Shown: in pieces, positions 1,323 to 13,734 of the stretch
Position numbering within the stretch: the stretch's first letter is position 1
Layout: every line of letters starts with the position of its first letter
Assembly (NCBI RefSeq): GCF_044339515.1
Contig: NZ_JBIIVK010000007.1
Coordinates: 6,776-70,775, forward strand
Reading direction: 5' to 3'
Source of the DNA: Flavobacterium sp.
Lineage (GTDB): Bacteria; Bacteroidota; Bacteroidia; Flavobacteriales; Flavobacteriaceae
DNA length: 64,000 nucleotides
The notes under the pieces: generated by a model
The model's input: only the letters and a program-made list of their open reading frames with translations
Told to the model about the DNA's origin: nothing
Databases searched by the model: none
Program-made: the position numbers and the translations under genes

Positions 1323-1955
1323 ATGAACATCACTCTTCCCATCCTTCTCGGGCTTTCGGCCGCAGCCATTGGAACAACTCCTCCCGGATTGCTCAACATG
1401 ACTGCCGCAAAAGTGAGCATGCGTGACGGAAGAAACCGTGCCTTATGGTTTGCGTTTGGAGCTTCGATAATTGTTTTTTTTCAAACTTTATTAGCGGTTT
1501 TTTTTGCTCGGTTTATTGACCAAAGAGCAGACGTTAGTGCCGTTTTACAAGAAATTGGGTTAGTGATTTTTACAGTACTAACTTTATATTTCCTTTGGAT
1601 AGCCAAAAAACCTAAAGATAAAAAGAAGAAAGAAGAAATCAAAATGCGAAGCAAATCGAGTCGTTTCTTTTTAGGAATGTTGTTGTCTTTGCTTAATTTA
1701 TTCCCGGTTCCTTATTATGTTTTTGTAAGCATTACATTGGGTTCATATGGTTATTTTAATTTTGATACCTTCTTTATCTATTCTTTTTCTGCCGCCTCAG
1801 CCATTGCCGCTTTTTTAGTTTTTTTCGGATACATTTCTTTTTTTAAAGGGAAAGAAAAAAAAGATACTTTTCTATCCAGAAACATCAACTATGTCATCGG
1901 CTCCATAACCGGAATAGTAGCATTGATTACTTTATTTAAAATTTTCTCGCGTTAA
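1323..1955 (+). CDS. LysE/RhtB-family translocator
   Basis: N-terminal PPGLLN motif and about six hydrophobic segments. Confidence 0.75.
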   Translation: MNITLPILLGLSAAAIGTTPPGLLNMTAAKVSMRDGRNRALWFAFGASIIVFFQTLLAVFFARFIDQRADVSAVLQEIGLVIFTVLTLYFLWIAKKPKDKKKKEEIKMRSKSSRFFLGMLLSLLNLFPVPYYVFVSITLGSYGYFNFDTFFIYSFSAASAIAAFLVFFGYISFFKGKEKKDTFLSRNINYVIGSITGIVALITLFKIFSR

Positions 1956-1964
1956 ATTTTTAAG

Positions 1965-2291
1965 ATGGAAGATCATTTTTTTGAAAAAGTATATGACATC
2001 GCCAAACAAATTCCTTACGGAAGAGTTACTTCCTATGGTGCTATTGCCAAGGCTTTAGGAACGGCTCGTTCTGCCCGAATGGTAGGTTGGGCGATGAGTG
2101 CTTCGCATAATCGAGAAGATGTTCCTGCACACCGAGTTGTGAACCGAATTGGTATTCTAACAGGGAAGCATCACTTTCAAGGCACAAATTTGATGCAGCA
2201 ATTACTGGAAAGCGAAGGTATTGAAGTGGTTGATAATCAAATTGTTGATTTTGAGAAGGTTTTTTGGGAGCCGGAGGTTAGCGAATTGTAA
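1965..2291 (+). CDS. Alkyltransferase-like (ATL / MGMT-family) DNA-binding protein
   Basis: IPYGRVTSYG...ARMVG and PAHRVV, with Ala in place of the catalytic Cys of PCHRV. Confidence 0.9.
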   Translation: MEDHFFEKVYDIAKQIPYGRVTSYGAIAKALGTARSARMVGWAMSASHNREDVPAHRVVNRIGILTGKHHFQGTNLMQQLLESEGIEVVDNQIVDFEKVFWEPEVSEL

Positions 2292-2329
2292 TTATTTCCT
2301 AATTTTTCAAAAATTTACAAATAATTACA
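2286..2329. repeat. 44-bp palindromic direct repeat, copy 1 (3' side of fic)
   Basis: TTGTAATTATTTCCTAATTTTTCAAAAATTTACAAATAATTACA, identical to 3714-3757. Confidence 0.95.
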
Positions 2330-3665
2330 TAAATGTTGTTTCAAAATTTTCTCCTTTCCAATAATTAAAAGATTTTTTGTTGATACTCACTTTCTTTAAA
2401 TAATTCTTTTCAACTAATTCTTCGATGTCTGTTCTTGCTGTTTGATTTGTAATTTTGAATATATTTTCAATTTCTTTTACCGTAAAAAATCGATTTTCAT
2501 CTTCTTCTAACCAAAATAAAATTTGTGCTTGTCTTTCATTTATATTGGGAAGCTTTAAAAATTTTGAAAGTTTATTTTCTTCTTTTTTCTTTTTAGCGAT
2601 ATAATTTTTTAAATCTTCAAAAGCTTGCGTTAAGACTTTTACTTGATAATGAATGAAATACGAAACATCCATATCATCAATTTCAGTATAAATATATGCT
2701 TTTTCGTATTGTGTCTTTGTTTTTAATATTACTCTTGAAATGGATAAATATTCAGTCAACCAATAACCATTTTTCAATAAATACCAATAGAAAAGTGCTC
2801 GTGCTGTTCTTCCATTGCCATCAACAAACGGATGAATAAAACCAATTAAAAAATGAAGAATTGATGCTTTCACAATCGGATGAATAAAACTTTCCTTTGG
2901 ATTATTCTTAAAAAAGTCACAAAATGACTTCATCAGTTCATCGAGTTCTTCGAAAGAAGGTGGTGTGTGAACTATTTCTCCGGTGATTTGATTCATAACC
3001 ATCACATCATTTGAAATTCTGAATTTGCCTATATTTCCTTCCTCTAACGTATTTTCTGTAACTAGTTTATGAATTTTAAACAACTTTTCAATGGTTAAAT
3101 CATTCTCTTTTTGTTCGCTTATATATTGAATCGTCTTGTAATTATTCAAAATCATTTGTTCCGATTTGTTGGAAGGTTTTCTTCCTTTTCGAAGCATTTC
3201 TTTTGCTTTTACTCTTGTGGTTGTTGCTCCTTCAATCATCGATGAAAAAATACTCTCTTCCATCAAAGCATTCGAGAGATATTTATGTTTGTCTAAATCA
3301 GAAAGTAGTTGCTCTTTTTGAATTCCAGCCCCAAAGTTGAAATCTAAATAGTGAAGTTTTTGTTGTAAATTTTCATTCACATTAAATTTAAATCGAATTG
3401 AAATATTTTTTTTAAAATTTCCAAAATAAACTTTCGTGTTTTTCAAATGCCGCATTGTTTTTGTAGCAATCCAAAGTTTTCTGGTAAATTCATTTTGTTC
3501 AATTTCATAATGGTCAGGTTTTTTAATGTACTTTATTTTGTCCCAATACGGATATTCAGATTCAATTTTATTAAAGTCTGGAAACTCCAACATTATTAAT
3601 GTGTCAAGTGATTTCAGAGCATTGATTTTGTCACTAAATTCAAAATGTGGAGCTTTTTCTATCAT
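2325..3665 (-). CDS. Fic-family protein (class II autoinhibited type) with C-terminal winged HTH
   Basis: Catalytic motif HPFVDGNGRTAR, upstream inhibitory motif SSMIEG, and HTH-like C-terminus FTVKEIENIFKITNQTARTDIEELVEK. Confidence 0.92.
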   Translation of the reverse strand: MIEKAPHFEFSDKINALKSLDTLIMLEFPDFNKIESEYPYWDKIKYIKKPDHYEIEQNEFTRKLWIATKTMRHLKNTKVYFGNFKKNISIRFKFNVNENLQQKLHYLDFNFGAGIQKEQLLSDLDKHKYLSNALMEESIFSSMIEGATTTRVKAKEMLRKGRKPSNKSEQMILNNYKTIQYISEQKENDLTIEKLFKIHKLVTENTLEEGNIGKFRISNDVMVMNQITGEIVHTPPSFEELDELMKSFCDFFKNNPKESFIHPIVKASILHFLIGFIHPFVDGNGRTARALFYWYLLKNGYWLTEYLSISRVILKTKTQYEKAYIYTEIDDMDVSYFIHYQVKVLTQAFEDLKNYIAKKKKEENKLSKFLKLPNINERQAQILFWLEEDENRFFTVKEIENIFKITNQTARTDIEELVEKNYLKKVSINKKSFNYWKGENFETTFM

Positions 3666-3694
3666 TATTTCCTAATTTTTCAAAAATTTACAAA
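3664..3694. repeat. Partial (31-bp) copy of the fic-flanking repeat
   Basis: ATTATTTCCTAATTTTTCAAAAATTTACAAA, overlapping the fic start codon. Confidence 0.9.
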
Positions 3695-3713
3695 AACAAA
3701 ATTACGGTTTTAT

Positions 3714-3757
3714 TTGTAATTATTTCCTAATTTTTCAAAAATTTACAAATAATTACA
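3714..3757. repeat. 44-bp palindromic direct repeat, copy 2 (5' side of fic)
   Basis: Identical to 2286-2329; with flanking bases it forms a 13-bp inverted repeat, TTTGTAATTATTT/AAATAATTACAAA. Confidence 0.95.
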
Positions 3758-3761
3758 AATC

Positions 3762-5090
3762 TCACTCCAGCAAACAAATAATAAATCGCGTTTTGTTTTC
3801 ATCGATTTGATAATTGAGGTAACCGCCGTGAGCTTCAATAATGTTTTTGGATAAGGTCAACCCAATACCGGCTCCTTCTTTTCGGGTGGTGAAAAAAGGT
3901 AGAAAAATTTTATCTTGAATTTCTGCATCAATCCCAATTCCGGAATCGGAAATAGAAATAAACAATCGTTTATTTTTTTGTTCAGCCGAAATTTCAATGA
4001 TTTTTTCGTCTTTTCCTTCCAAAGCATACAAACTATTGGTTAATAAATTAATCAGCACTTGTTCCATTTGAAGTGCATCAACCATAATCCATCTATTGAA
4101 AGAAATGTTGTTTTTTACGATAATATTTTCTTTTTTAAATAACGAGTTCATCAATTGTAGTGCGTTTTTCATCAACTGATTTAGCTCTGTTTTTTCTTTT
4201 TTAGGCGATGGTAACATAGCGATTTTTCGGTAACTTTCCACAAAATTTTGCAGATGATTACTCCGATGAATCATCGTAGAAACACTTTCTTTAATGTCGT
4301 CTAAATCATCTTTTGAAAGTGATTCTTGTTGCATTAATTCATTCAAATTTTGCGTAAGCGAACGAATTGGCGTAATTGAATTCATCAATTCATGCGAGAT
4401 GACTTTCATCAAATTAATCCAAGCTTCTTTTTCTTTTTTCTCAACCACTTTTTGAATGGAATCTAACATAACAATGTAATATTCCTGGTCGTAAGCTTTT
4501 GTTTTTGAAGCTTGTAGCATAAACGTTTGTGCGTCTTCTTTGTTCACTCGAATTTGTAAAGACGTTTTCAATTCTTCAAAATTTCGTTCTTCAATAATCT
4601 CGCAAAGCGAAGGTAATTGATTTTTTAAATACATCCATTTTGATACTTTTGGTACCATAAAATGACTCGATAAATAGTCGTTCATCAAAAAAATGTTCCA
4701 ATCTTCGTCTGATTTTTGAAGAATTAAAACACCGGTTTCAATGTTGTTTAAAATAGAACGGTAAACCAAATCTTTCGAAACTTGTTCGTTTTGATTTTGT
4801 TTTAATGAATCATATAAACGAAACAAATTTTTGTAATTATCATGCGATTTAAGCTTAGAAAAATCCGCTGAAAAATCATTATTTAAGATTGCAGCAATAG
4901 TTTTATCATAAAATAAAAAAGTGTTTCGAAGAAAAGTAAAAAACTCAATTCCCATCAACAAAAAAAGTAAAAAACCAAAAATGGAAGAATAAATCAAAGA
5001 TTTATACAAAAACAAAAAACTGCCAATAAATACCAAAAGCAATAGCAATAATCGGATAAAGAGTTGATGATATAGTTTTAAATTTTTCAA
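3762..5090 (-). CDS. Sensor histidine kinase (two N-terminal TM helices, HisKA + HATPase)
   Basis: H-box ISHELMNS, N-box QVLINLLTN, DSGIG, F-box FLPFFTT, GAGIGL. Confidence 0.93.
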   Translation of the reverse strand: MKNLKLYHQLFIRLLLLLLVFIGSFLFLYKSLIYSSIFGFLLFLLMGIEFFTFLRNTFLFYDKTIAAILNNDFSADFSKLKSHDNYKNLFRLYDSLKQNQNEQVSKDLVYRSILNNIETGVLILQKSDEDWNIFLMNDYLSSHFMVPKVSKWMYLKNQLPSLCEIIEERNFEELKTSLQIRVNKEDAQTFMLQASKTKAYDQEYYIVMLDSIQKVVEKKEKEAWINLMKVISHELMNSITPIRSLTQNLNELMQQESLSKDDLDDIKESVSTMIHRSNHLQNFVESYRKIAMLPSPKKEKTELNQLMKNALQLMNSLFKKENIIVKNNISFNRWIMVDALQMEQVLINLLTNSLYALEGKDEKIIEISAEQKNKRLFISISDSGIGIDAEIQDKIFLPFFTTRKEGAGIGLTLSKNIIEAHGGYLNYQIDENKTRFIICLLE

Positions 5091-5102
5091 ACCTATTTTT
5101 GA

Positions 5103-6455
5103 TTAATCGGTTGAACCTAAATTGTATTTTTCCATTCTTCGGTACAAAGCCGCTCTTGACAATCCGAGTTCTTCAGCCGATTTGCTTATGTTGAAGTTAT
5201 TTCTATACAATACTTTTTCAATGGAAATTTTTTCAATGTCGGACAAAGGCATTTCTTCCATTTCAAAAGGTGAAAAGTTTATCACATCCAAATCTAAATC
5301 AGCACTTTTGATGGTATTATTTTCACACAAAATCACTGCTCTTTCGATACGATTCTCCATTTCCCGAATGTTTCCTTTCCAAGCGTTTTTTTGGATTTGT
5401 TCCAACGCTTTTTCCTCAAAAACGATTTCTTCTCGTTCATATTTTTGAGTAATTTTTTCCAATAAAAAAGTAGCCAACGGAACAATATCCTCTTTTCGTT
5501 CATGAAGCGATGGAAGTTTAATTTCCATGGTATTGATGCGATAATACAAATCTTCTCTGAATTTTTTTGCGTTAACTTCTTTTTTCAAATCAAGATTTGT
5601 TGCCGTAATAATTCGAATGTTCAATGGTCTGGACTTAGATTCTCCCAATCGCGTAACCGATTTATTTTGAATCACTTGTAATAATTTAGTTTGCAAATGC
5701 AACGGAACATTACCGATTTCGTCTAAAAAAATCGTGCCGTTCTGAGCGGCTTCAAATCGTCCCGGTGTATCATTTTTGGCATCTGTAAAAGCCCCTTTGG
5801 CATAGCCGAATAACTCACTTTCAAAGATACTTTCACTCAACGAACCCAAATCAACATGCACAAAAGCTTCTTTTTTCCGATTGGATTGTTGATGAATATA
5901 ATGTGCTAAAACGAATTTTCCAGTTCCGTTTTCACCTAATATCAACACATTTGCATCGGTTTTTGCAACTTTATCTGCCAAAGAATATGCTTTTTGAATG
6001 GCAATTGATTTTCCGATGAAAAATGAATCTACCTTTACTGAATCTATGGTTTTCTTTCTAATTTTTCGATTTTCTTCAACAGCAAATTTAACAACCGAAA
6101 CCAATTTTTCATTGTCCCACGGTTTTAAAATATAATCAAAAGCTCCTAATTTCAGACCCTCAACAGCGGTTTCCACTTTCCCAAATGCTGTCATCAAAAT
6201 CACCGTCGTTTTGGGTGAAAGGGTTTTGATTTCTTTCAACAAATAGATTCCTTCTCGTCCGTCTTCAAAACCAATGCGGTAATTCATATCCAGCAAAATC
6301 ACATCAACTTCATTTTCTGCTAATAATTCAACTACTTTTTTTGGATTATTGAGTGTAAAAATGGTTTCAAAATGTTTCTTCAACACCATTTTACAAGCAA
6401 ATAGAATGTCTTCTTGATCGTCAATAATTAAAATAGTAGCATTTGTTTTTTTCAT
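5103..6455 (-). CDS. NtrC-type sigma54-dependent response regulator
   Basis: REC domain (IIDD...LLDMN), Walker A GENGTGK, ESELFG..GAFTDA, FLDEI, C-terminal Fis-type HTH. Confidence 0.95.
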   Translation of the reverse strand: MKKTNATILIIDDQEDILFACKMVLKKHFETIFTLNNPKKVVELLAENEVDVILLDMNYRIGFEDGREGIYLLKEIKTLSPKTTVILMTAFGKVETAVEGLKLGAFDYILKPWDNEKLVSVVKFAVEENRKIRKKTIDSVKVDSFFIGKSIAIQKAYSLADKVAKTDANVLILGENGTGKFVLAHYIHQQSNRKKEAFVHVDLGSLSESIFESELFGYAKGAFTDAKNDTPGRFEAAQNGTIFLDEIGNVPLHLQTKLLQVIQNKSVTRLGESKSRPLNIRIITATNLDLKKEVNAKKFREDLYYRINTMEIKLPSLHERKEDIVPLATFLLEKITQKYEREEIVFEEKALEQIQKNAWKGNIREMENRIERAVILCENNTIKSADLDLDVINFSPFEMEEMPLSDIEKISIEKVLYRNNFNISKSAEELGLSRAALYRRMEKYNLGSTD

Positions 6456-6480
6456 GTAAGCTGATTTGTTTCAGTTTCAC

Positions 6481-6517
6481 CGTTCAATTGCGAACAATTA
6501 GTGTCCGAAAATGAACA
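6481..6517. promoter_or_regulatory. Tandem palindromic sites; probable enhancer (UAS) for the divergent NtrC-type regulator
   Basis: CGTTCA-ATTG-CGAACA (6481-6496) and TGTCCG-AAAA-TGAACA (6502-6517), centres 21 bp apart. Confidence 0.55.
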
Positions 6518-6578
6518 CTTGATTTTTTATTTTTTTTGTGATGAATTAAAAATCAACGTCTTACAAAACTTTAATTTT

Positions 6579-6593
6579 TGGCATAAAATTGAC
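6579..6593 (+). promoter_or_regulatory. Possible sigma54 -24/-12 promoter
   Basis: TGGCATAAAATTGAC. The -24 box TGGCA is good; the -12 box is one base closer than consensus. Confidence 0.35.
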
Positions 6594-6618
6594 TTAGATC
6601 ATTACAAATAAATGTATT

Positions 6619-7863
6619 ATGGACACTATCGTTCCTCGTAAAAATAGAAAAAATAAATATATACTGATTGGTTCAACTGTTTTTTTAATCCTGCTTATTT
6701 TAGTGGTGATGAGTATGACCAAAAAAAGAAGTTTGGATGTTTCCATAAACGAAATTTCTATAAAAACGGTAATGGTTGAAAATTTTGAAGATTATATAGT
6801 TTTTCAAGCAAAAGTGGAGCCACTCAATTCAATGTTGCTGAATGTGATTGAAGGTGGTTCTATTCAAGAAATTTTTGTAGAAAATGGCGATTTTGTAGAA
6901 AAAGGGCAACCGCTGGCAAGATTGTATAATCCAAATACTGAATTAAGTTTTATGAATCAGGAAACCGCGATGATTGAACAAATTAACAACCTGAACAAAG
7001 CCAAACTCGATTTGAGAACACAAGAATTAAATTTGGCAAAAGACTTAATTTCCATTGAACACGATTATTTTGATGCAAAAAATTTATATGATTTGAATCA
7101 GAAATTATACAAACAAGAAATTCTTTCCAAAAATGAATGGGAAACCACGCAGGAAAATTTCAGGTATCAAACCGAACGAAAAAACATCATTCAACAAAGT
7201 GTACAAAAAGAAAAGCAAGCCAATCAAATTTTAATCGCACAAATCAATCAATCACAAGGAATTATACAAAAAAGTTTACAGATTTTACGTGAGAATAAAA
7301 AGAATTTTTTGGTCGTTGCTCCGCTTTCCGGAAGATTGTCATCGTTTGAACCTGTCTTGGGAAAAAATTACATTGCCGGAGAAACTATTGGTAAAATTGA
7401 TGTAATGAAAGGCTATAAATTGATGGCAGATGTGGATGAATTTTATTTGGAAAAAGTGTCCGAAGGTCAAAAAGCAAACATTGAATACAAAGAAAAAATG
7501 ATTTCAGTTGTCGTTTCTAAAGTGATTCCTGAAATAAAAAGCGGTCGTTTTCAAGTGGAATTACAATTTGAAGAAAATAAAGAACTCGATTTGCGACAAG
7601 GATTAAGTTTTGGAGTGCGACTGTTATTATCCGAAAAAGTAAAATCAACAGTCATTCCAAAAGGGAGCTTTTATCAAGAAACGGCCGGAAAATGGATTTT
7701 TGTTGTCAATGGCGATAAAGCTGAACGCAGAGAAATACAATTAGGCAGAGAAAATCCATTGTATTACGAAGTGCTTTCCGGCCTGAAAGTAGGTGAAAAA
7801 GTAATAACTTCCGGTTATAAAGATTACGTGGAAATGGAAGTTTTAAATTTAAATAAAAATTAA
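6619..7863 (+). CDS. Efflux periplasmic adaptor (MacA/HlyD family)
   Basis: N-terminal anchor, lipoyl-like GGSIQEIFVENGDFVEKGQPL, coiled hairpin, APLSG. Confidence 0.9.
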   Translation: MDTIVPRKNRKNKYILIGSTVFLILLILVVMSMTKKRSLDVSINEISIKTVMVENFEDYIVFQAKVEPLNSMLLNVIEGGSIQEIFVENGDFVEKGQPLARLYNPNTELSFMNQETAMIEQINNLNKAKLDLRTQELNLAKDLISIEHDYFDAKNLYDLNQKLYKQEILSKNEWETTQENFRYQTERKNIIQQSVQKEKQANQILIAQINQSQGIIQKSLQILRENKKNFLVVAPLSGRLSSFEPVLGKNYIAGETIGKIDVMKGYKLMADVDEFYLEKVSEGQKANIEYKEKMISVVVSKVIPEIKSGRFQVELQFEENKELDLRQGLSFGVRLLLSEKVKSTVIPKGSFYQETAGKWIFVVNGDKAERREIQLGRENPLYYEVLSGLKVGEKVITSGYKDYVEMEVLNLNKN

Positions 7864-7886
7864 TCATCAATCAAAAAACGAATACT

Positions 7887-8591
7887 ATGATCACGATTCA
7901 AAAATTATCAAAAATCTTCCGAACAGAAGAAGTAGAAACCAAAGCTTTAAACGAAATTGATTTGGTTGTTCATCAAGGCGAATTTGTTACCATTATGGGA
8001 GCTTCCGGTTGCGGAAAATCTACCTTACTCAACATTGTGGGTTTGTTAGACAGTGCCTCGGGAGGAAGTTATCAATTGTTGAACCAAGAAATGACTGGTC
8101 TGAATGAATCAGAAAAATCGAAAATCAGAAAGCAAAACATCGGATTTATTTTTCAAAATTTCAACTTGATTGATGAACTTTCAGTGTTTGACAATATTGA
8201 ATTACCACTTATTTATAATAATGTTCCAACTTCTGAAAGAAAGAAAAAAGTGGAAGCAATTGCTGAGCGTTTAGCTATTTCACATCGTTTGAAGCATTTT
8301 CCACAACAACTTTCAGGAGGTCAACAACAACGAGTTGCTGTGGCAAGAGCGTTAATCAATGATCCAAAAATCATTTTAGCCGATGAACCAACCGGAAATC
8401 TAGACAGTAAAAACGGTAATGAAGTGATGGAATTGCTAACCGATTTACACGCCAACGGAGCCACAATTTTGATGGTAACACACTCCGATTATGACGCTTC
8501 TTTTTCTCAAAAAACCATTTATATGAAAGATGGAATGGTGATTTCTGAAAAACAAAACAGTAGAAATGTTGATGTTTTGGTAACCAATTAA
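7887..8591 (+). CDS. ABC transporter ATP-binding protein (MacB/LolD type)
   Basis: GASGCGKST, LSGGQQQR, ILADEPTGNLD. Confidence 0.95.
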   Translation: MITIQKLSKIFRTEEVETKALNEIDLVVHQGEFVTIMGASGCGKSTLLNIVGLLDSASGGSYQLLNQEMTGLNESEKSKIRKQNIGFIFQNFNLIDELSVFDNIELPLIYNNVPTSERKKKVEAIAERLAISHRLKHFPQQLSGGQQQRVAVARALINDPKIILADEPTGNLDSKNGNEVMELLTDLHANGATILMVTHSDYDASFSQKTIYMKDGMVISEKQNSRNVDVLVTN

Positions 8592-8602
8592 ACAGTAAAA
8601 TC

Positions 8603-11035
8603 ATGATTAATAATTGGATTAAGATATTTTTATATCAACTCAAAAAAAATAAATTATTCACTATTCTCAATACATTAGGATTGAGTTTGGGAATAGCCGG
8701 ATTAATTTTTGCTATTTTATATTGGAATGATGAACAAAGTTATAATGCATGGAATCCTGAGAAAGATAATGTTTTTCAGTCAATTAATCAGGTTTCAACT
8801 GATGTGTTTTGGGCCAGTAATGTATCTCCTTTGGAAGCTTTTTTCAAAAAAGATTTTCCGGAACTAGAATCGTATTGTTATTTGGAAAATTGGTATTATG
8901 AAGAATTGGTTCATTATAAAAATAAAAAACAAATTCTTAAAATAACGGATTCGCAAAACACTTTTTTTGAATTTTTCCCTTTTCCTTTTGTAAAAGGAAG
9001 TTCAAAATCAGCGTTGAAAGACAATGCTAGTATGGCAATTTCTCAAGAAGCAGCAAACCGTCTTTTTGGTGATGAAAATCCAATGGGAAAAGAAGTACTT
9101 TATTCGGGAAGAAAAATCGTTATCAGAGGTGTTTATACAATTCCGGGAAATTCATCTTTGGAACCCGAAGCAGTTACTAATCTTATTGATCCAAAATTGA
9201 AAGAAAACGCCGATCATTGGGGCAACTTCAATCATGGATTGCTTTTGAAACTTAAAAATCCGGATGATAAGGACAAAGTAAGTTTGCGAATTGAAAAAAT
9301 TTTATTTGAAAATAGAGTTTTAAAATGGGCAAAAGAACAAGGATTAACGCCTGAGGAATGGTTAAAGAAAAATGGAGGAGAAAGCACCAAAATCATTTTA
9401 GAGCCATTAGCATCTGCCCGATTACATTCAATTGTTGATGGATATGCTGAAGGTAAAGGAAACTATCAATTTCTGCTCATTATGATGGGTTTGTCTGTAT
9501 TGATTTTGATTTTGTCTATCGTAAATTATATCAACCTGGCAACAGCCAACGCCATTTTGAGAGCCAAAGAAGTTGGCGTAAGAAAGATTTTAGGTGCATC
9601 AAAAAGTAATATTGTTAAACAATTTATTTTTGAAACGATAATAATTACAACATTTTCTATTTTATTAGCTTTAGTGATTGTAGAATTATCACTCCCGTAT
9701 TACAACGAATTTTTAGGGAAAACGCTACTCATTCACGGAAGTCAATTTTACATTCAATTAATTATCATTTTCATTATTGTTGTTTTAGTAGCCGGAATTT
9801 TTCCGTCAATTTATGTTTCTAATTTTGAAACATTAAAAGTACTCAAAGGCAACTTTGGACGAAGTAAAAGCGGTGTTTGGTTACGGAATGGCATGTTGGT
9901 TTTTCAGTTTGCCATTGCCACCTTCTTTATTGTTGGTTCTTATATAGTTTATCAGCAAATTAATTATTTAAATACAAAAGATTTAGGTTTTAAAGGTGAC
10001 CAAGTGCTTTCCATTCGATATAGAAACATTTATCACTGGTCCGAAAAGGACTATCAAGTAAAAATATTTAACAGGTATAACACCATAAAAAATGAATTAT
10101 CTAAAATTAAAGGTGTTGAGCAAGTGGCTACCGGAGCATTTGCATTTGGAGGTAATGCCGGTTCTTCATCAAGTTTTGAATACAATGACATCACCATTCA
10201 AGGTCAAAACATGGGAATTGATTTTGGAATGCTCGAAATGATGAAAATTCAATTGAAAGAAGGAAGATATCTTTCTGAAAAATTAGCATCAGACACTATA
10301 ACTTCAATGTTAGTAAACGAAACGGCCATGCGAATGATGAAGGAAAAAAATCCAATTGGAAAAGAAGTTGACTGGAATGGAAATAAGCTGAAAATAATCG
10401 GTATTGTCTCAGATTTTAATTTGGATGGACCTCAAAGCGAAATTCCTCCGATGGTTTTCTTTCACTTCAAAACAATCGATTGGATGCTCGGAAATGCAAG
10501 TAAAATGCATGTAAAGGTTAATGGTGAAAATATTCAGCAAACGATTGCAGATATTGAAAAATTTTGGCTAAAAAATGTAGATAGCGACTATCCGTTTGAA
10601 TATGATTTTGTAAACAAAGAGTATGCTCGAACGTATGAAACTTACGTCAAACAAAAAAATCTTTTCTCGTTACTCAATGTAATTGTGATTCTAATTGCTT
10701 TGTTCGGATTGTTCTCTTTAGCATCGTATTCCATCCAACGAAGAATGAAAGAAATCGCAATTAGAAAAACGTTGGGTGCAGAAACCAAAATATTGCTCAA
10801 AGAACTGTCTAAGCAATACATCGTTTTTTGCCTTATCGGATTTTTATTAGCACTCTTTCCGGTTTATTTTTTACTCGGAAAATGGTTAGAAAATTTTGCT
10901 TTTCGAATTGAAATTTCTTTTATACCATTCCTAGTCGGATTTATAATTCTAATGTTATTAACCTTGATCGTTGTGCTTTCCAAAGCTTACCAAGCTACTA
11001 AAGTGGATGTTTTAAACTATTTAAAATATGAATAA
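8603..11035 (+). CDS. ABC transporter permease (duplicated MacB-PCD/FtsX)
   Basis: Two FtsX-like repeats: RAKEVGVRKILGAS and RRMKEIAIRKTLGA. Confidence 0.92.
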   Translation: MINNWIKIFLYQLKKNKLFTILNTLGLSLGIAGLIFAILYWNDEQSYNAWNPEKDNVFQSINQVSTDVFWASNVSPLEAFFKKDFPELESYCYLENWYYEELVHYKNKKQILKITDSQNTFFEFFPFPFVKGSSKSALKDNASMAISQEAANRLFGDENPMGKEVLYSGRKIVIRGVYTIPGNSSLEPEAVTNLIDPKLKENADHWGNFNHGLLLKLKNPDDKDKVSLRIEKILFENRVLKWAKEQGLTPEEWLKKNGGESTKIILEPLASARLHSIVDGYAEGKGNYQFLLIMMGLSVLILILSIVNYINLATANAILRAKEVGVRKILGASKSNIVKQFIFETIIITTFSILLALVIVELSLPYYNEFLGKTLLIHGSQFYIQLIIIFIIVVLVAGIFPSIYVSNFETLKVLKGNFGRSKSGVWLRNGMLVFQFAIATFFIVGSYIVYQQINYLNTKDLGFKGDQVLSIRYRNIYHWSEKDYQVKIFNRYNTIKNELSKIKGVEQVATGAFAFGGNAGSSSSFEYNDITIQGQNMGIDFGMLEMMKIQLKEGRYLSEKLASDTITSMLVNETAMRMMKEKNPIGKEVDWNGNKLKIIGIVSDFNLDGPQSEIPPMVFFHFKTIDWMLGNASKMHVKVNGENIQQTIADIEKFWLKNVDSDYPFEYDFVNKEYARTYETYVKQKNLFSLLNVIVILIALFGLFSLASYSIQRRMKEIAIRKTLGAETKILLKELSKQYIVFCLIGFLLALFPVYFLLGKWLENFAFRIEISFIPFLVGFIILMLLTLIVVLSKAYQATKVDVLNYLKYE

Positions 11036-12329
11036 GAGGTTAATCATTTTGTTCTTATTTACTTCGAGCATTTTTGTGCGTGGCCAAGAAGTGTCTTGGT
11101 CACTGCAAAAGTGTTTTGAGGTAGCTTTGCAAAACAATATCGATATAAAAATCAAACAATTGGAGATTTTACGTTCCAAAAAAAGCTATACGAATCCGTT
11201 GTTAGAATTAGTTCCATCTGTCGGATTAACGGCTAATCATAGTTACAATTTTGGTTCTACGATTGATCCAAATACCAATGCCAGAGTTAGTTCTGATATT
11301 CAATGGGATAATCTTAGCTTTAATGCCTCTATCAATTTACTCGATTTTTCAAACTTAGCAACAGCCGGGAAAAATAAATTGGAAGTCGAATTAAGCAAAG
11401 CCGATAAAGAGGTGGTTGAGTACGAATATAAATTGCAATTGCTCGAAAAATATTTTGAAGTATTATACAGTCAGGAGCAACTAAAAATTCAACAAGAACA
11501 GTTCAAAAACACCGTTGATAATTTAGAGCGTATTCAAAAAGAAGTCGAAATCGGTAGCAAACCAAAAAGTGATTTGTATGATATGCAATTCAATTTTTCA
11601 TTGGAAGAAAATCAAATTTTGGTTTCCAAACAGCTGTATGAATACAAAAAAAAAGAACTTTTTCAATTGATGAACGACAATGAAACGAGTTCGGAAAACG
11701 TTTCGTTAGAACCTTATTTTGCATCAAACACAGTTGAAAATAATTTTGAAATCACTAACAATCCAAAACTAAATTTCGCTAAAATCAGTTTTAAAGCTTT
11801 TAAAAAAGACGTAGGAGTTTTAAGAGGAAATAATCTCCCTACTTTGTCTGCTTTTTACGGTTTTTCAACATTCTATTCTACTCCAATAAACACGCCTAAT
11901 GTTCCGGTGGATGATTTTCAAACACAATTTGACAACAACAAGTATCATCAGACCGGATTGCAGTTGCAAATACCCATTTTCACCGGATTCAAACAAAACC
12001 GAAGAATTGCCGCAGCAAAAATTCAAACAGAAAAAGCCAAATGGGAGGCCGAACAAGAGAAAATTAAAATCAATCAACAAATCGAATTAGAAAAAACTCA
12101 AAAAAATAATTATTTCCAACGCAATCAAAAACTCAAAAACTCACTTGAACTTGCTGAAAAAATGTTAACCACTTCGCAAGCAAAATTTCTAAGCGGAAAA
12201 ACGGATGCCGTAGTGTTTTCTGCCGTCAAAAACCAACGATTGAATGCTGAATACGAAGTTTTAAAAAATGATTTGTTGTTTCAATATACTTCCGTGAAAA
12301 TAAATCTGCTTACTAAAAATCAATTGTAA
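11028..12329 (+). CDS. TolC-family outer-membrane channel
   Basis: Signal peptide, SLQKCFEVALQNN, LQIPIFTG; last gene of the efflux operon. Confidence 0.9.
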   Translation: MNKRLIILFLFTSSIFVRGQEVSWSLQKCFEVALQNNIDIKIKQLEILRSKKSYTNPLLELVPSVGLTANHSYNFGSTIDPNTNARVSSDIQWDNLSFNASINLLDFSNLATAGKNKLEVELSKADKEVVEYEYKLQLLEKYFEVLYSQEQLKIQQEQFKNTVDNLERIQKEVEIGSKPKSDLYDMQFNFSLEENQILVSKQLYEYKKKELFQLMNDNETSSENVSLEPYFASNTVENNFEITNNPKLNFAKISFKAFKKDVGVLRGNNLPTLSAFYGFSTFYSTPINTPNVPVDDFQTQFDNNKYHQTGLQLQIPIFTGFKQNRRIAAAKIQTEKAKWEAEQEKIKINQQIELEKTQKNNYFQRNQKLKNSLELAEKMLTTSQAKFLSGKTDAVVFSAVKNQRLNAEYEVLKNDLLFQYTSVKINLLTKNQL

Positions 12330-12543: not shown

Positions 12544-12576
12544 CCCCTCTCCTTTGGAGAGGGGTTGGGGGTGAGG
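12544..12576 (+). repeat. REP-like GC-rich palindrome, copy 1
   Basis: CCCCTCTCC-TTT-GGAGAGGGG-TTGGGGGTGAGG. Confidence 0.85.
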
Positions 12577-12588
12577 TAAAAATAATTT

Positions 12589-13734
12589 ATGAAACTCGAC
12601 AGAAAAGAAATATTAAAAGCCTTAGAAACCATTTCTGTGGCTGGTGAAGGAAAAAATATGGTGGAAAGTGGAGCAGTTAAAAATGTACTCACTTTTGGTG
12701 ATGAAGTAGAGGTTGATTTAGTTTTATCAACGCCGGCTTTACACATTAAGAAAAGAGCGGAAGTTGATATCATAAAAACGATTCATGATTTAGTTTATGA
12801 GAAAGCCAAAGTGAAAGTAAACATTAAGATTGAAGCTCCACAAAAACCTGAAAATCCAAATCTAATTAAAGGAAAACCAATTCCGGGAATCAGCAACATT
12901 GTTGCCATAGCATCCGGAAAAGGAGGCGTTGGAAAATCTACCGTAACCGCCAATTTAGCCGTTACTTTAGCTAAAATGGGATTCAATGTAGGGGTGCTTG
13001 ATGCCGATATTTATGGGCCATCGATGCCCATTATGTTCGATGTAGAAAATGAAAAACCAATCTCTGTAGAGGTAGATGGCAAGTCAAAAATGAAACCGGT
13101 AGAAAGTTACGAAGTAAAAATTCTTTCCATTGGATTTTTCACTAAACCCGACCAAGCTGTTATTTGGCGTGGCCCAATGGCTGCCAAAGCCTTAAACCAA
13201 ATGATTTTTGATGCCGATTGGGGTCAACTCGACTTCCTGCTCATCGATTTACCACCCGGAACAGGTGACATTCACCTTTCCATCATGCAATCGCTTCCTA
13301 TCACAGGTGCCGTTGTGGTGAGTACTCCTCAAGCCGTGGCTTTAGCCGATGCTAAAAAAGGGGTTTCGATGTTTTTATCAGAAGCTATTAGCGTTCCCGT
13401 GTTAGGAATCATCGAAAATATGGCTTATTTCACGCCGGAAGAACTACCAAACAACAAATATTATATCTTTGGAAAAGAAGGTGCCAAAAACTTAGCCGAA
13501 GATTTACAAGTGCCCATGTTGGGAGAAATTCCATTAGTACAAAGTATTCGTGAAGCTGGGGATTACGGTCGTCCGGCCGCATTGCAAACCGCAACACCAC
13601 TCGAAGGTGCTTTCGAAGAAATTGCCCGCAATGTTGTGCAAGAAGTAGTAAACCGAAACGAAAGTTTACCACCAACCGAAGCAATTAAAATAACCACAAT
13701 GGCCGGCTGTTCGGCTGTAAAAGGGAAAAAATAA
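12589..13734 (+). CDS. mrp: Mrp/NBP35 (ApbC) Fe-S cluster carrier ATPase
   Basis: ASGKGGVGKST, DADIYGPS, WRGPM, DLPPGTGD, ENM. Confidence 0.95.
   Translation: MKLDRKEILKALETISVAGEGKNMVESGAVKNVLTFGDEVEVDLVLSTPALHIKKRAEVDIIKTIHDLVYEKAKVKVNIKIEAPQKPENPNLIKGKPIPGISNIVAIASGKGGVGKSTVTANLAVTLAKMGFNVGVLDADIYGPSMPIMFDVENEKPISVEVDGKSKMKPVESYEVKILSIGFFTKPDQAVIWRGPMAAKALNQMIFDADWGQLDFLLIDLPPGTGDIHLSIMQSLPITGAVVVSTPQAVALADAKKGVSMFLSEAISVPVLGIIENMAYFTPEELPNNKYYIFGKEGAKNLAEDLQVPMLGEIPLVQSIREAGDYGRPAALQTATPLEGAFEEIARNVVQEVVNRNESLPPTEAIKITTMAGCSAVKGKK

Follow-up and report, generated by a model that had tools for sequence, protein, structure and literature searches.

Introduction

It has been reported that CccR from Yersinia pseudotuberculosis (PDB 7XUX), a class II Fic protein with an N-terminal inhibitory helix and, at its C-terminus, a helix-turn-helix (HTH), is dimeric and acts as a repressor of its own promoter, by way of a 46-nt inverted repeat that lies near the −35/−10 boxes and overlaps the core promoter (PMC9755527). 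Similarly, the dimer of SoFic from Shewanella oneidensis (PDB 3EQX/3ZCN) binds the AT-rich first 100 bp upstream of the start of its own gene (bioRxiv 10.64898/2026.07.09.737422), and CbFic2 has been reported to be activated when it binds DNA (PMC10628234). Autoregulation by Fic enzymes with a winged helix-turn-helix (wHTH) is shown or indicated by experiment for two proteins only, CccR and SoFic, of which CccR alone has a defined operator motif. Here, we describe a fic gene of Flavobacterium sp. that is bracketed by palindromic direct repeats; it lies in a stretch of 64,000 nucleotides (RefSeq assembly GCF_044339515.1, contig NZ_JBIIVK010000007.1, positions 6,776 to 70,775), referred to below as the window. 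An initial annotation of the window had offered two readings of the repeats, a mobile cassette inserted by a recombinase acting in trans or operator sites for the HTH of Fic, or both. The comparisons presented here make it likely that the repeats are the operators of fic itself, with autorepression by the Fic protein, acting as the presumed DNA-binding partner, as the best-supported mechanism.

Repeat Structure and Promoter Layout

The 44-mer TTGTAATTATTTCCTAATTTTTCAAAAATTTACAAATAATTACA occurs in the window as two identical direct copies, c1 and c2, one at either end of fic (Table 1), and its 31-nt core, ATTATTTCCTAATTTTTCAAAAATTTACAAA, is found a third time (c3) at 3664–3694; dinucleotide-preserving shuffles gave 0 matches to the repeat in 100 trials. 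The 44-mer is imperfectly palindromic, with 86% complementarity between its 21-nt arms. c1 encloses both the stop codon of ATL, an alkyltransferase-like gene (2289–2291), and that of fic (2325–2327, minus strand); c2 ends 4 nt before the kinase stop codon (3762–3764); and c3 shares 2 nt with the fic ATG (3663–3665, minus strand). The identity of the full copies, the short copy over the fic start, the inverted ends and the placement of the stop codons had all been described in the initial annotation and agree with the coordinates obtained here, and its remark that no transposase or integrase is nearby also holds, as no recombinase, integrase or transposase is present among the neighbouring genes of fic. 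Beyond the three window sites, the core has no further occurrence in the 108-contig, 3.38-Mb genome, and a whole-genome scan with a position weight matrix (PWM) gives scores above 12 bits only at these three sites (Table 1; maximum 51.0), so the operator appears dedicated to the fic locus. The three-copy layout is also found in independent assemblies of other species (G019, G195, G344, L057 and L058), and the repeat is therefore not an assembly artefact, which had been named as one way in which the observation might fail.

Within the repeats, the conserved unit derived from 53 copies gathered from fic loci is a 35-bp dyad, which reads ATTATTTGTAAATTTTT-n-AAAAATTAGGAAATAAT in the sense of fic. 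Its information content is 1.2–2.0 bits at positions 3–17 and 0.9–2.0 bits at positions 19–33, and the central position 18 holds 0.00 bits, which places the dyad axis there. Among the 28 fic loci examined for upstream operators, 25 have two tandem upstream copies, and in 23 of these 25 the distal and proximal copies start 55–56 bp apart; the start of the proximal operator is at about −33/−34 or −43/−44 from the ATG in the majority of the 28 loci. In 24 of 25 orthologous loci, the 20-bp spacer separating the operators contains the sequence TAnnTTTG, mostly as TATATTTG; in 18 loci, its end is 2 nt short of the proximal dyad. We take this sequence to be the Bacteroidetes −7 promoter box. Bacteroidetes promoters differ from those of the sigma-70 type, and a sigma-70 promoter scan returned the same number of matches as expected from shuffles.

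This layout suggests how autorepression would work. A Fic dimer would bind the 35-bp dyad; the distal operator c2 would cover the upstream promoter region, and the proximal operator c3, which runs from just past the −7 box to the ATG, would cover the start site and the leader; with both operators occupied, RNA polymerase would be blocked, giving negative autoregulation. As direct repeats, c1 and c2 could recombine with each other and so remove fic, which would leave one operator behind and has apparently happened repeatedly in relatives.

In two unrelated genomes, a 16-nt G+C hairpin, TCCCGAAGCTTCGGGA, is inserted in the middle of an operator, just past the fic stop in L059 (~1590–1640) and ~100 nt upstream of fic in L080; it resembles a tiny mobile hairpin that has landed in the AT-rich dyad centre.

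The Fic Protein and Its Distant Homologues

The Fic motif of the window protein, HPFVDGNGRTAR at residues 278–289, fits HPFx[D/E]GN[G/K]R, and in an alignment of 32 homologues H278, P279, F280, D282, G283, N284, G285, R286 and R289 are invariant. The inhibitory motif [S/T]xxxE[G/N] is present as SSMIEG (residues 141–146), N-terminal to the Fic core in the same chain, with S141, S142, E145 and G146 invariant in the same alignment. Pfam HTH_DeoR, HTH_11 and MarR_2 match at residues 375–426; in the AlphaFold model (mean predicted local distance difference test score, pLDDT, 81.6), this part of the protein has helices at 377–388, 396–403 and 407–419, followed by a β-hairpin at 423–437. The top PDB matches of the model in Foldseek are SoFic (3ZCN/3EQX), CccR (7XUX) and CbFic2 (8CIL), with 351–368 aligned columns; SoFic is the best match in both sequence and fold and has the same domain order, and CccR is the second-best fold match, with ~21% sequence identity. 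By its active-site motif, inhibitory helix and wHTH, Fic is a class II Fic-wHTH enzyme of the SoFic/CccR/CbFic2 group, and AMP-transferase activity is predicted from the intact catalytic motif. It is not a SoFic orthologue, since it scores 66.5 bits against the NCBIfam SoFic equivalog with a cut-off of 550, and the EF-Tu target of SoFic cannot be assumed for it.

Homologues with 41–51% identity are found in Chitinophagaceae, Sphingobacteriia, Prolixibacteraceae, Weeksellaceae and Methanosarcinales; ATL and Mrp are not near fic in these organisms. Many of these homologues also have two tandem upstream dyads, which are clearest at an offset of 56–66 bp, and because such dyads stand upstream of fic where ATL and Mrp are not nearby, the operator sites follow fic rather than the neighbourhood. 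The half-site is TCC(T/A)AATTT in Bacteroidota, with (T/S)NQTAR in the recognition helix; it is TCTTCACAAA at one Chitinophagaceae locus, with SNGSAR, and ATTACTAAT in Archaea (Methanosarcinales), with VYQTAR. The half-sites thus seem to be lineage-specific and to vary along with the beginning of the recognition helix of the wHTH. This covariation, together with the symmetry of the dyad and the two phased sites, suggests that Fic dimerises and binds its own promoter. The operator reading of the initial annotation is thereby strongly supported, by the conserved paired dyads, the −7 box, the travel of the sites with fic and the covariation of the helix.

Conservation of the Locus in Flavobacteriaceae

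When one genome per species was scanned for close relatives of Fic, 29 loci with Fic at ≥65% identity were obtained from at least 12 Flavobacteriaceae genera, including Aquimarina, Polaribacter, Winogradskyella, Tenacibaculum, Aequorivita, Croceitalea and Hwangdonia. ATL is convergent and directly downstream of fic in 25 of the 29 loci, Mrp is divergent and upstream of it in 27, and the genes beyond ATL (TrmB, LysE and a glycosyltransferase) are the same as in the window. Because of this synteny, fic is, as judged from gene order, the ancestral resident between ATL and Mrp, and the arrangement ATL> <fic Mrp> of G019 is the old order.

In the window, the order is glycosyltransferase, TrmB, LysE, ATL, fic, histidine kinase, sigma-54 response regulator, HlyD, ABC transporter, MacB, TolC and Mrp. 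G019, L057 and G344 lack the part from the kinase to TolC and have c2 facing Mrp, and the TolC–Mrp spacer of the window aligns with the c2–Mrp spacer of G019; on these alignments, the 8.6-kb kinase–TolC module is a derived insertion between the distal operator and Mrp. In G118, the module lies on the ATL side of fic and the c1-fic-c3-c2 unit on its other side, with c1 fused to the TolC stop as c1 is fused to the ATL stop in the window.

Several further observations concern this interval. The kinase/sigma-54 regulator/HlyD/ABC/MacB/TolC module is variably present between ATL and Mrp, on either side of the fic unit depending on the species. The TolC gene of the module (window 3762–12329; L137/L048 in G118) ends in TTGTAA, like ATL, and the palindrome around c1 in G118 (L048:6255–6325) reaches ~20 nt per arm (CGTTTTGTAATTATTT ... 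AAATAATTACAAAAACG), as a result of which the final codons of TolC and of fic mirror each other. The window also has, at ~12545–12575 and just upstream of Mrp, a G+C-rich hairpin (CCCCTCTCC TTTG GAGAGGGG, with a G-rich run after it) that is missing from the homologous spacer of G019. In addition, among close relatives ATL is the most diverged gene of the backbone, with 14–17% nucleotide differences from G390 and G019 and 7–15% in its neighbours.

Table 1. Features of the fic locus and its surroundings in the window.
Feature	Position	Strand	Evidence and remarks
ATL gene (alkyltransferase-like, 108 aa)	1965..2291	+	Pfam DNA_binding_1, E = 6e-26; converges on fic; stop inside c1
c1, 44-mer with 35-bp dyad at 2291–2325	2286..2329	-	PWM 50.6 bits; apparent orphan third operator between the fic and ATL stops
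fic, class II Fic-domain protein, 446 aa	2325..3665	-	Pfam Fic, E = 7e-20; HTH_DeoR, E = 2e-6
c3, putative proximal operator	3664..3698	-	PWM 44.9 bits; spans the predicted 5' leader as far as the fic ATG
Predicted Bacteroidetes −7 box, TAATTTTG	3697..3704	-	Consensus TAnnTTTG; in the spacer between the upstream operators
c2, 44-mer with putative distal dyad at 3719–3753	3714..3757	-	PWM 50.6 bits; start 55 bp upstream of that of c3
8.6-kb module: histidine kinase, sigma-54 response regulator, HlyD, ABC, MacB, TolC	3762..12329		Judged to be derived; not in the fic unit
Mrp/ApbC-like gene	12589..13734	+	Placed by tblastn; apparent ancestral divergent neighbour of fic

The Third Copy and the MGLTIHY-Family Gene

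In the loci compared, no dyad follows fic in genera other than Flavobacterium. In L057, L058 and L064/G344, c1 overlaps the fic stop and is followed 18–25 nt on by the ATG of a gene of the MGLTIHY family, which converges on ATL; in the window, G019 and G195, this gene is missing and c1 directly adjoins the ATL stop. As the MGLTIHY gene follows c1 in the former loci but is missing from the window, c1 appears to be the orphan operator of a neighbour gene lost from the window genome. The 44-bp identity of c1 and c2 is mostly what is expected of two consensus sites of the distal type, and only the last few bases of c1 (TTACAA) derive from the ATL stop.

The MGLTIHY-family protein has no Pfam or NCBIfam match and occurs in a short form of 193–194 aa and a long form of 451–454 aa; examples are L050:8286–8870 (G390), L057:5346–5927 and L051:5647–7011 (long form). 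In several Flavobacterium species, its gene sits directly behind a Fic operator, with or without fic. The MGLTIHY gene may be a second gene under the control of Fic.

Loss of fic in Relatives

The core, with up to 3 mismatches, was found in 19 of 401 Flavobacterium genomes scanned, and a pattern scan gives at least 6 fic carriers among the 401; these counts for the genus are sample-based lower bounds. G315 has ATL, one core and the kinase, and six genomes have ATL, one core and Mrp; in other genomes, the genes beside lone cores encode a MGLTIHY-family protein, a 254-aa protein, a 295-aa protein or a metallophosphoesterase. In G023, the stops of ATL and the kinase abut, with neither fic nor the repeat. 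G315, G373, G300, G390 and G353 have no fic orthologue, and each has kept one operator. Where the lone operator abuts ATL, in G315, G373, G353 and four more fic-less genomes, the junction TTGTAA directly followed by TTATTTCC is identical to that of c1, which points to loss of fic rather than to a site never filled; where the lone operator abuts the kinase or Mrp, its right flank is that of c2. Such single-operator junctions are the products expected of recombination between c1 and c2, and it is probable that fic was deleted through the repeats. Lone operators show decay, in the form of an internal 10-bp deletion, a 10-bp duplication or lost arms, which fits relics.

The empty site with a single 44-mer-type copy that the initial annotation had suggested looking for thus exists, in G315 and the six ATL–operator–Mrp genomes, but is best read as a deletion scar and not as an unfilled target. 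The search it had proposed for the 44-mer beside other cargo did find other genes, all of them within the same ATL–Mrp interval, where they are explained by insertions and deletions around a surviving operator. G390, whose backbone diverges from the window by ~10%, has ATL, the 254-aa gene, the MGLTIHY gene, one operator and the kinase, and is the reciprocal of the window, which kept fic but lost the MGLTIHY gene. The lone operator of this fic-less genome (L050:8870–8925) contains 10 bp duplicated in tandem (CCTAATTTTT twice), apparently a step of decay.

Exchange of fic between Species

Besides being lost, fic has been exchanged. At four-fold degenerate sites, the window (G000) and L057 differ by 60–68% in TrmB, LysE, ATL and Mrp but by 22% in fic. 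When 2325–3665 of the window is compared with L057:4001–5293, the last ~1 kb of fic is 90–99% identical and the first ~330 nt 37–63% identical; the first ~110 codons are hypervariable between species (37–63% nucleotide identity). Since ~1 kb is 90–99% identical and the flanking genes are saturated at synonymous sites, the mosaic indicates recent recombination between species. Against G195, fic is as saturated as its flanks (64%), so it is not intrinsically slow. In the comparison with G019, the window shows 16% differences in ATL but none in c1 and 4.9% in fic, and the last ATL mismatch is at 2285, one base before c1; at four-fold sites, TrmB differs by 30% and fic by 23%. The synonymous-site data thus show that fic has been exchanged between species and not inherited strictly vertically within Flavobacterium.

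It is possible, and can be put forward only tentatively, that the operators double as homology arms, so that host recombination, without a dedicated recombinase, would delete, re-install or swap fic or the c1-fic-c3-c2 unit between diverged Flavobacterium. The nearly invariant operators would then flank fic with islands of perfect identity and would have turned a resident gene into a de facto cassette. The contrast between fic and its flanks in L057, the long stretch of high identity there and the drop in differences at c1 in G019 are in line with this idea, as are the relocation of the unit across the module in G118, with its fusion of c1 to the TolC stop, and the match of the one-operator junctions of fic-less genomes to the c1 or c2 junctions. 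It is weakened by one recombination end point in L057 that falls inside fic and off the operators, by the TrmB value in G019, which is not clearly apart from that of fic and may reflect an ordinary recombination mosaic, and by the length of the repeat, as 44 bp is a poor RecA substrate. The facts allow the conserved operators as cross-over points without proving them; the repeats probably mediated deletion and perhaps exchange.

Alternative Explanations

Given that fic lies between identical 44-bp palindromic direct repeats, that some relatives have one copy and no fic and that the genes adjoining the repeat vary by species, it could be supposed that fic is a mobile cassette, brought into a hairpin target between the ATL and kinase genes by a site-specific recombinase encoded elsewhere. 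This is scarcely credible, since at least 12 genera have fic at precisely this place, where two of the three repeats are also present already; the repeat has no further site in the genome and, across the 401 Flavobacterium genomes, is found only at the fic locus or with fic; the abutting stops of G023 leave no target hairpin; the whole dyad sequence is conserved, with no compensatory changes in the outer arms; and no integrase or transposase is nearby. G315 and G023 at first seemed to support a cassette, a view overturned because outgroup genera show that fic is ancestral, and the proposal of a trans-acting recombinase in the initial annotation is largely refuted by the ancestral synteny, the G023 junction and the restriction of the repeat to the fic locus. 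Other mobile or repetitive elements were also rejected: a genome-wide repeat of the repetitive extragenic palindrome or miniature inverted-repeat transposable element (MITE) kind is excluded by the presence of only three sites in the genome; a transposon, MITE or insertion sequence by repeats that are direct, confined to three sites at one locus and conserved in position across the family; and an integrative element with att sites by outgroup genera that all carry fic here and by the lack of a recombinase gene nearby. Meanwhile, the palindromes might act as RNA or DNA hairpins, either as bidirectional terminators or as translational or leader structures; c1 lies between convergent stops, c2 directly past the kinase stop and lone copies after the ATL stop, and the predicted folding free energy (dG) is −9 to −10.6 kcal/mol, with z-scores of −3.4 to −4.2. 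However, the stems consist entirely of A-U pairs, without a G+C stem or a U tract, a terminator scan gave 0 sites in window 1900–4000, and the outer arms are lost or altered without compensation in L031, L033, L039 and L040, where the inner sequence is kept; in other genera, the sites are only upstream of fic and never after ATL, and the fixed 55–56 bp phasing around the −7 box fits protein binding. A hairpin function of this kind is therefore very unlikely, and an intrinsic (rho-independent) terminator was rejected on the same grounds, namely the all-A/U stems, the lack of a U tract, the 0 scan matches and the uncompensated arm changes. The dyads might also be operators read by some other transcription factor, as near-perfect orphan operators in genomes without a fic orthologue could suggest; this is improbable, as the sites accompany fic where the context is unrelated, also in other phyla and archaea, and vary together with its recognition helix, as they are found only at the fic locus in the window genome, and as relatives of Fic bind their own promoters.

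Several points weigh against the preferred reading of the repeats as Fic operators. The operators in fic-less genomes are still identical to the core at 28–31 of 31 positions, which requires either recent losses or some function independent of Fic, and c1 is a perfect consensus site yet has no gene to regulate in the window genome. A convincing −33 element was not found at the fic promoter, the covariation with the recognition helix consists of three half-site classes only, and the palindrome, located in the leader immediately ahead of the ATG, could have an additional role in the RNA (dG ~−10 kcal/mol).

Comparison with Known Systems

Autoregulation of the window gene, as proposed from its operators, resembles that of CccR, and the dyad of 35–44 nt, at which binding would take place, is comparable to the inverted repeat of that protein. 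Unlike CccR, which has one operator with two 10-bp boxes 26 bp apart, the window has two full dyads 55–56 bp apart and a third after the gene; its Fic has an extra hypervariable N-terminal region of ~110 residues; and CccR is an effector of a type VI secretion system, and no secretion context is seen at the window locus. The window operators lie at a place equivalent to the SoFic site, although SoFic, unlike the window locus, has no defined operator motif.

A single gene bounded by imperfect palindromes and present or absent among relatives also recalls integron cassettes with their attC sites, and the co-oriented genes of L057, L058 and G344, each preceded or followed by a site, recall integron arrays. 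Unlike integrons, the locus has no integrase and no attC core motifs; its sites are conserved in sequence and not just in structure; and the window gene has its own promoter between two sites and a position that is fixed across the bacterial family. An integron cassette was accordingly rejected, as there is no recombinase nearby, the sites are sequence-conserved across genera and GTTRRRY-type ends are absent. In addition, the locus resembles toxin–antitoxin-type operators (AbiEi and conditional repression of the Doc/Phd type), in which a growth-affecting enzyme is held down by its own product at promoter palindromes, toxicity being putative here; it differs from them in having no separate antitoxin gene, as inhibition in a class II Fic protein comes from its own intramolecular helix.

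Significance

On the sequence evidence, the window Fic adds a new and well-defined member to the known class of Fic-wHTH proteins that are autoregulated, a property that it would share. The locus offers a sharply defined 35-bp dyad and a fixed layout of two operators, which are common to a large Fic-wHTH clade across Bacteroidota and also to some archaea, and DNA binding, repression and a possible DNA-dependent control of AMPylation become directly testable in tractable Flavobacterium. The locus also calls for caution, as a gene bracketed by perfect palindromic direct repeats can mimic a mobile cassette even though the repeats are its own operators, and such repeats can drive recurrent gene loss.

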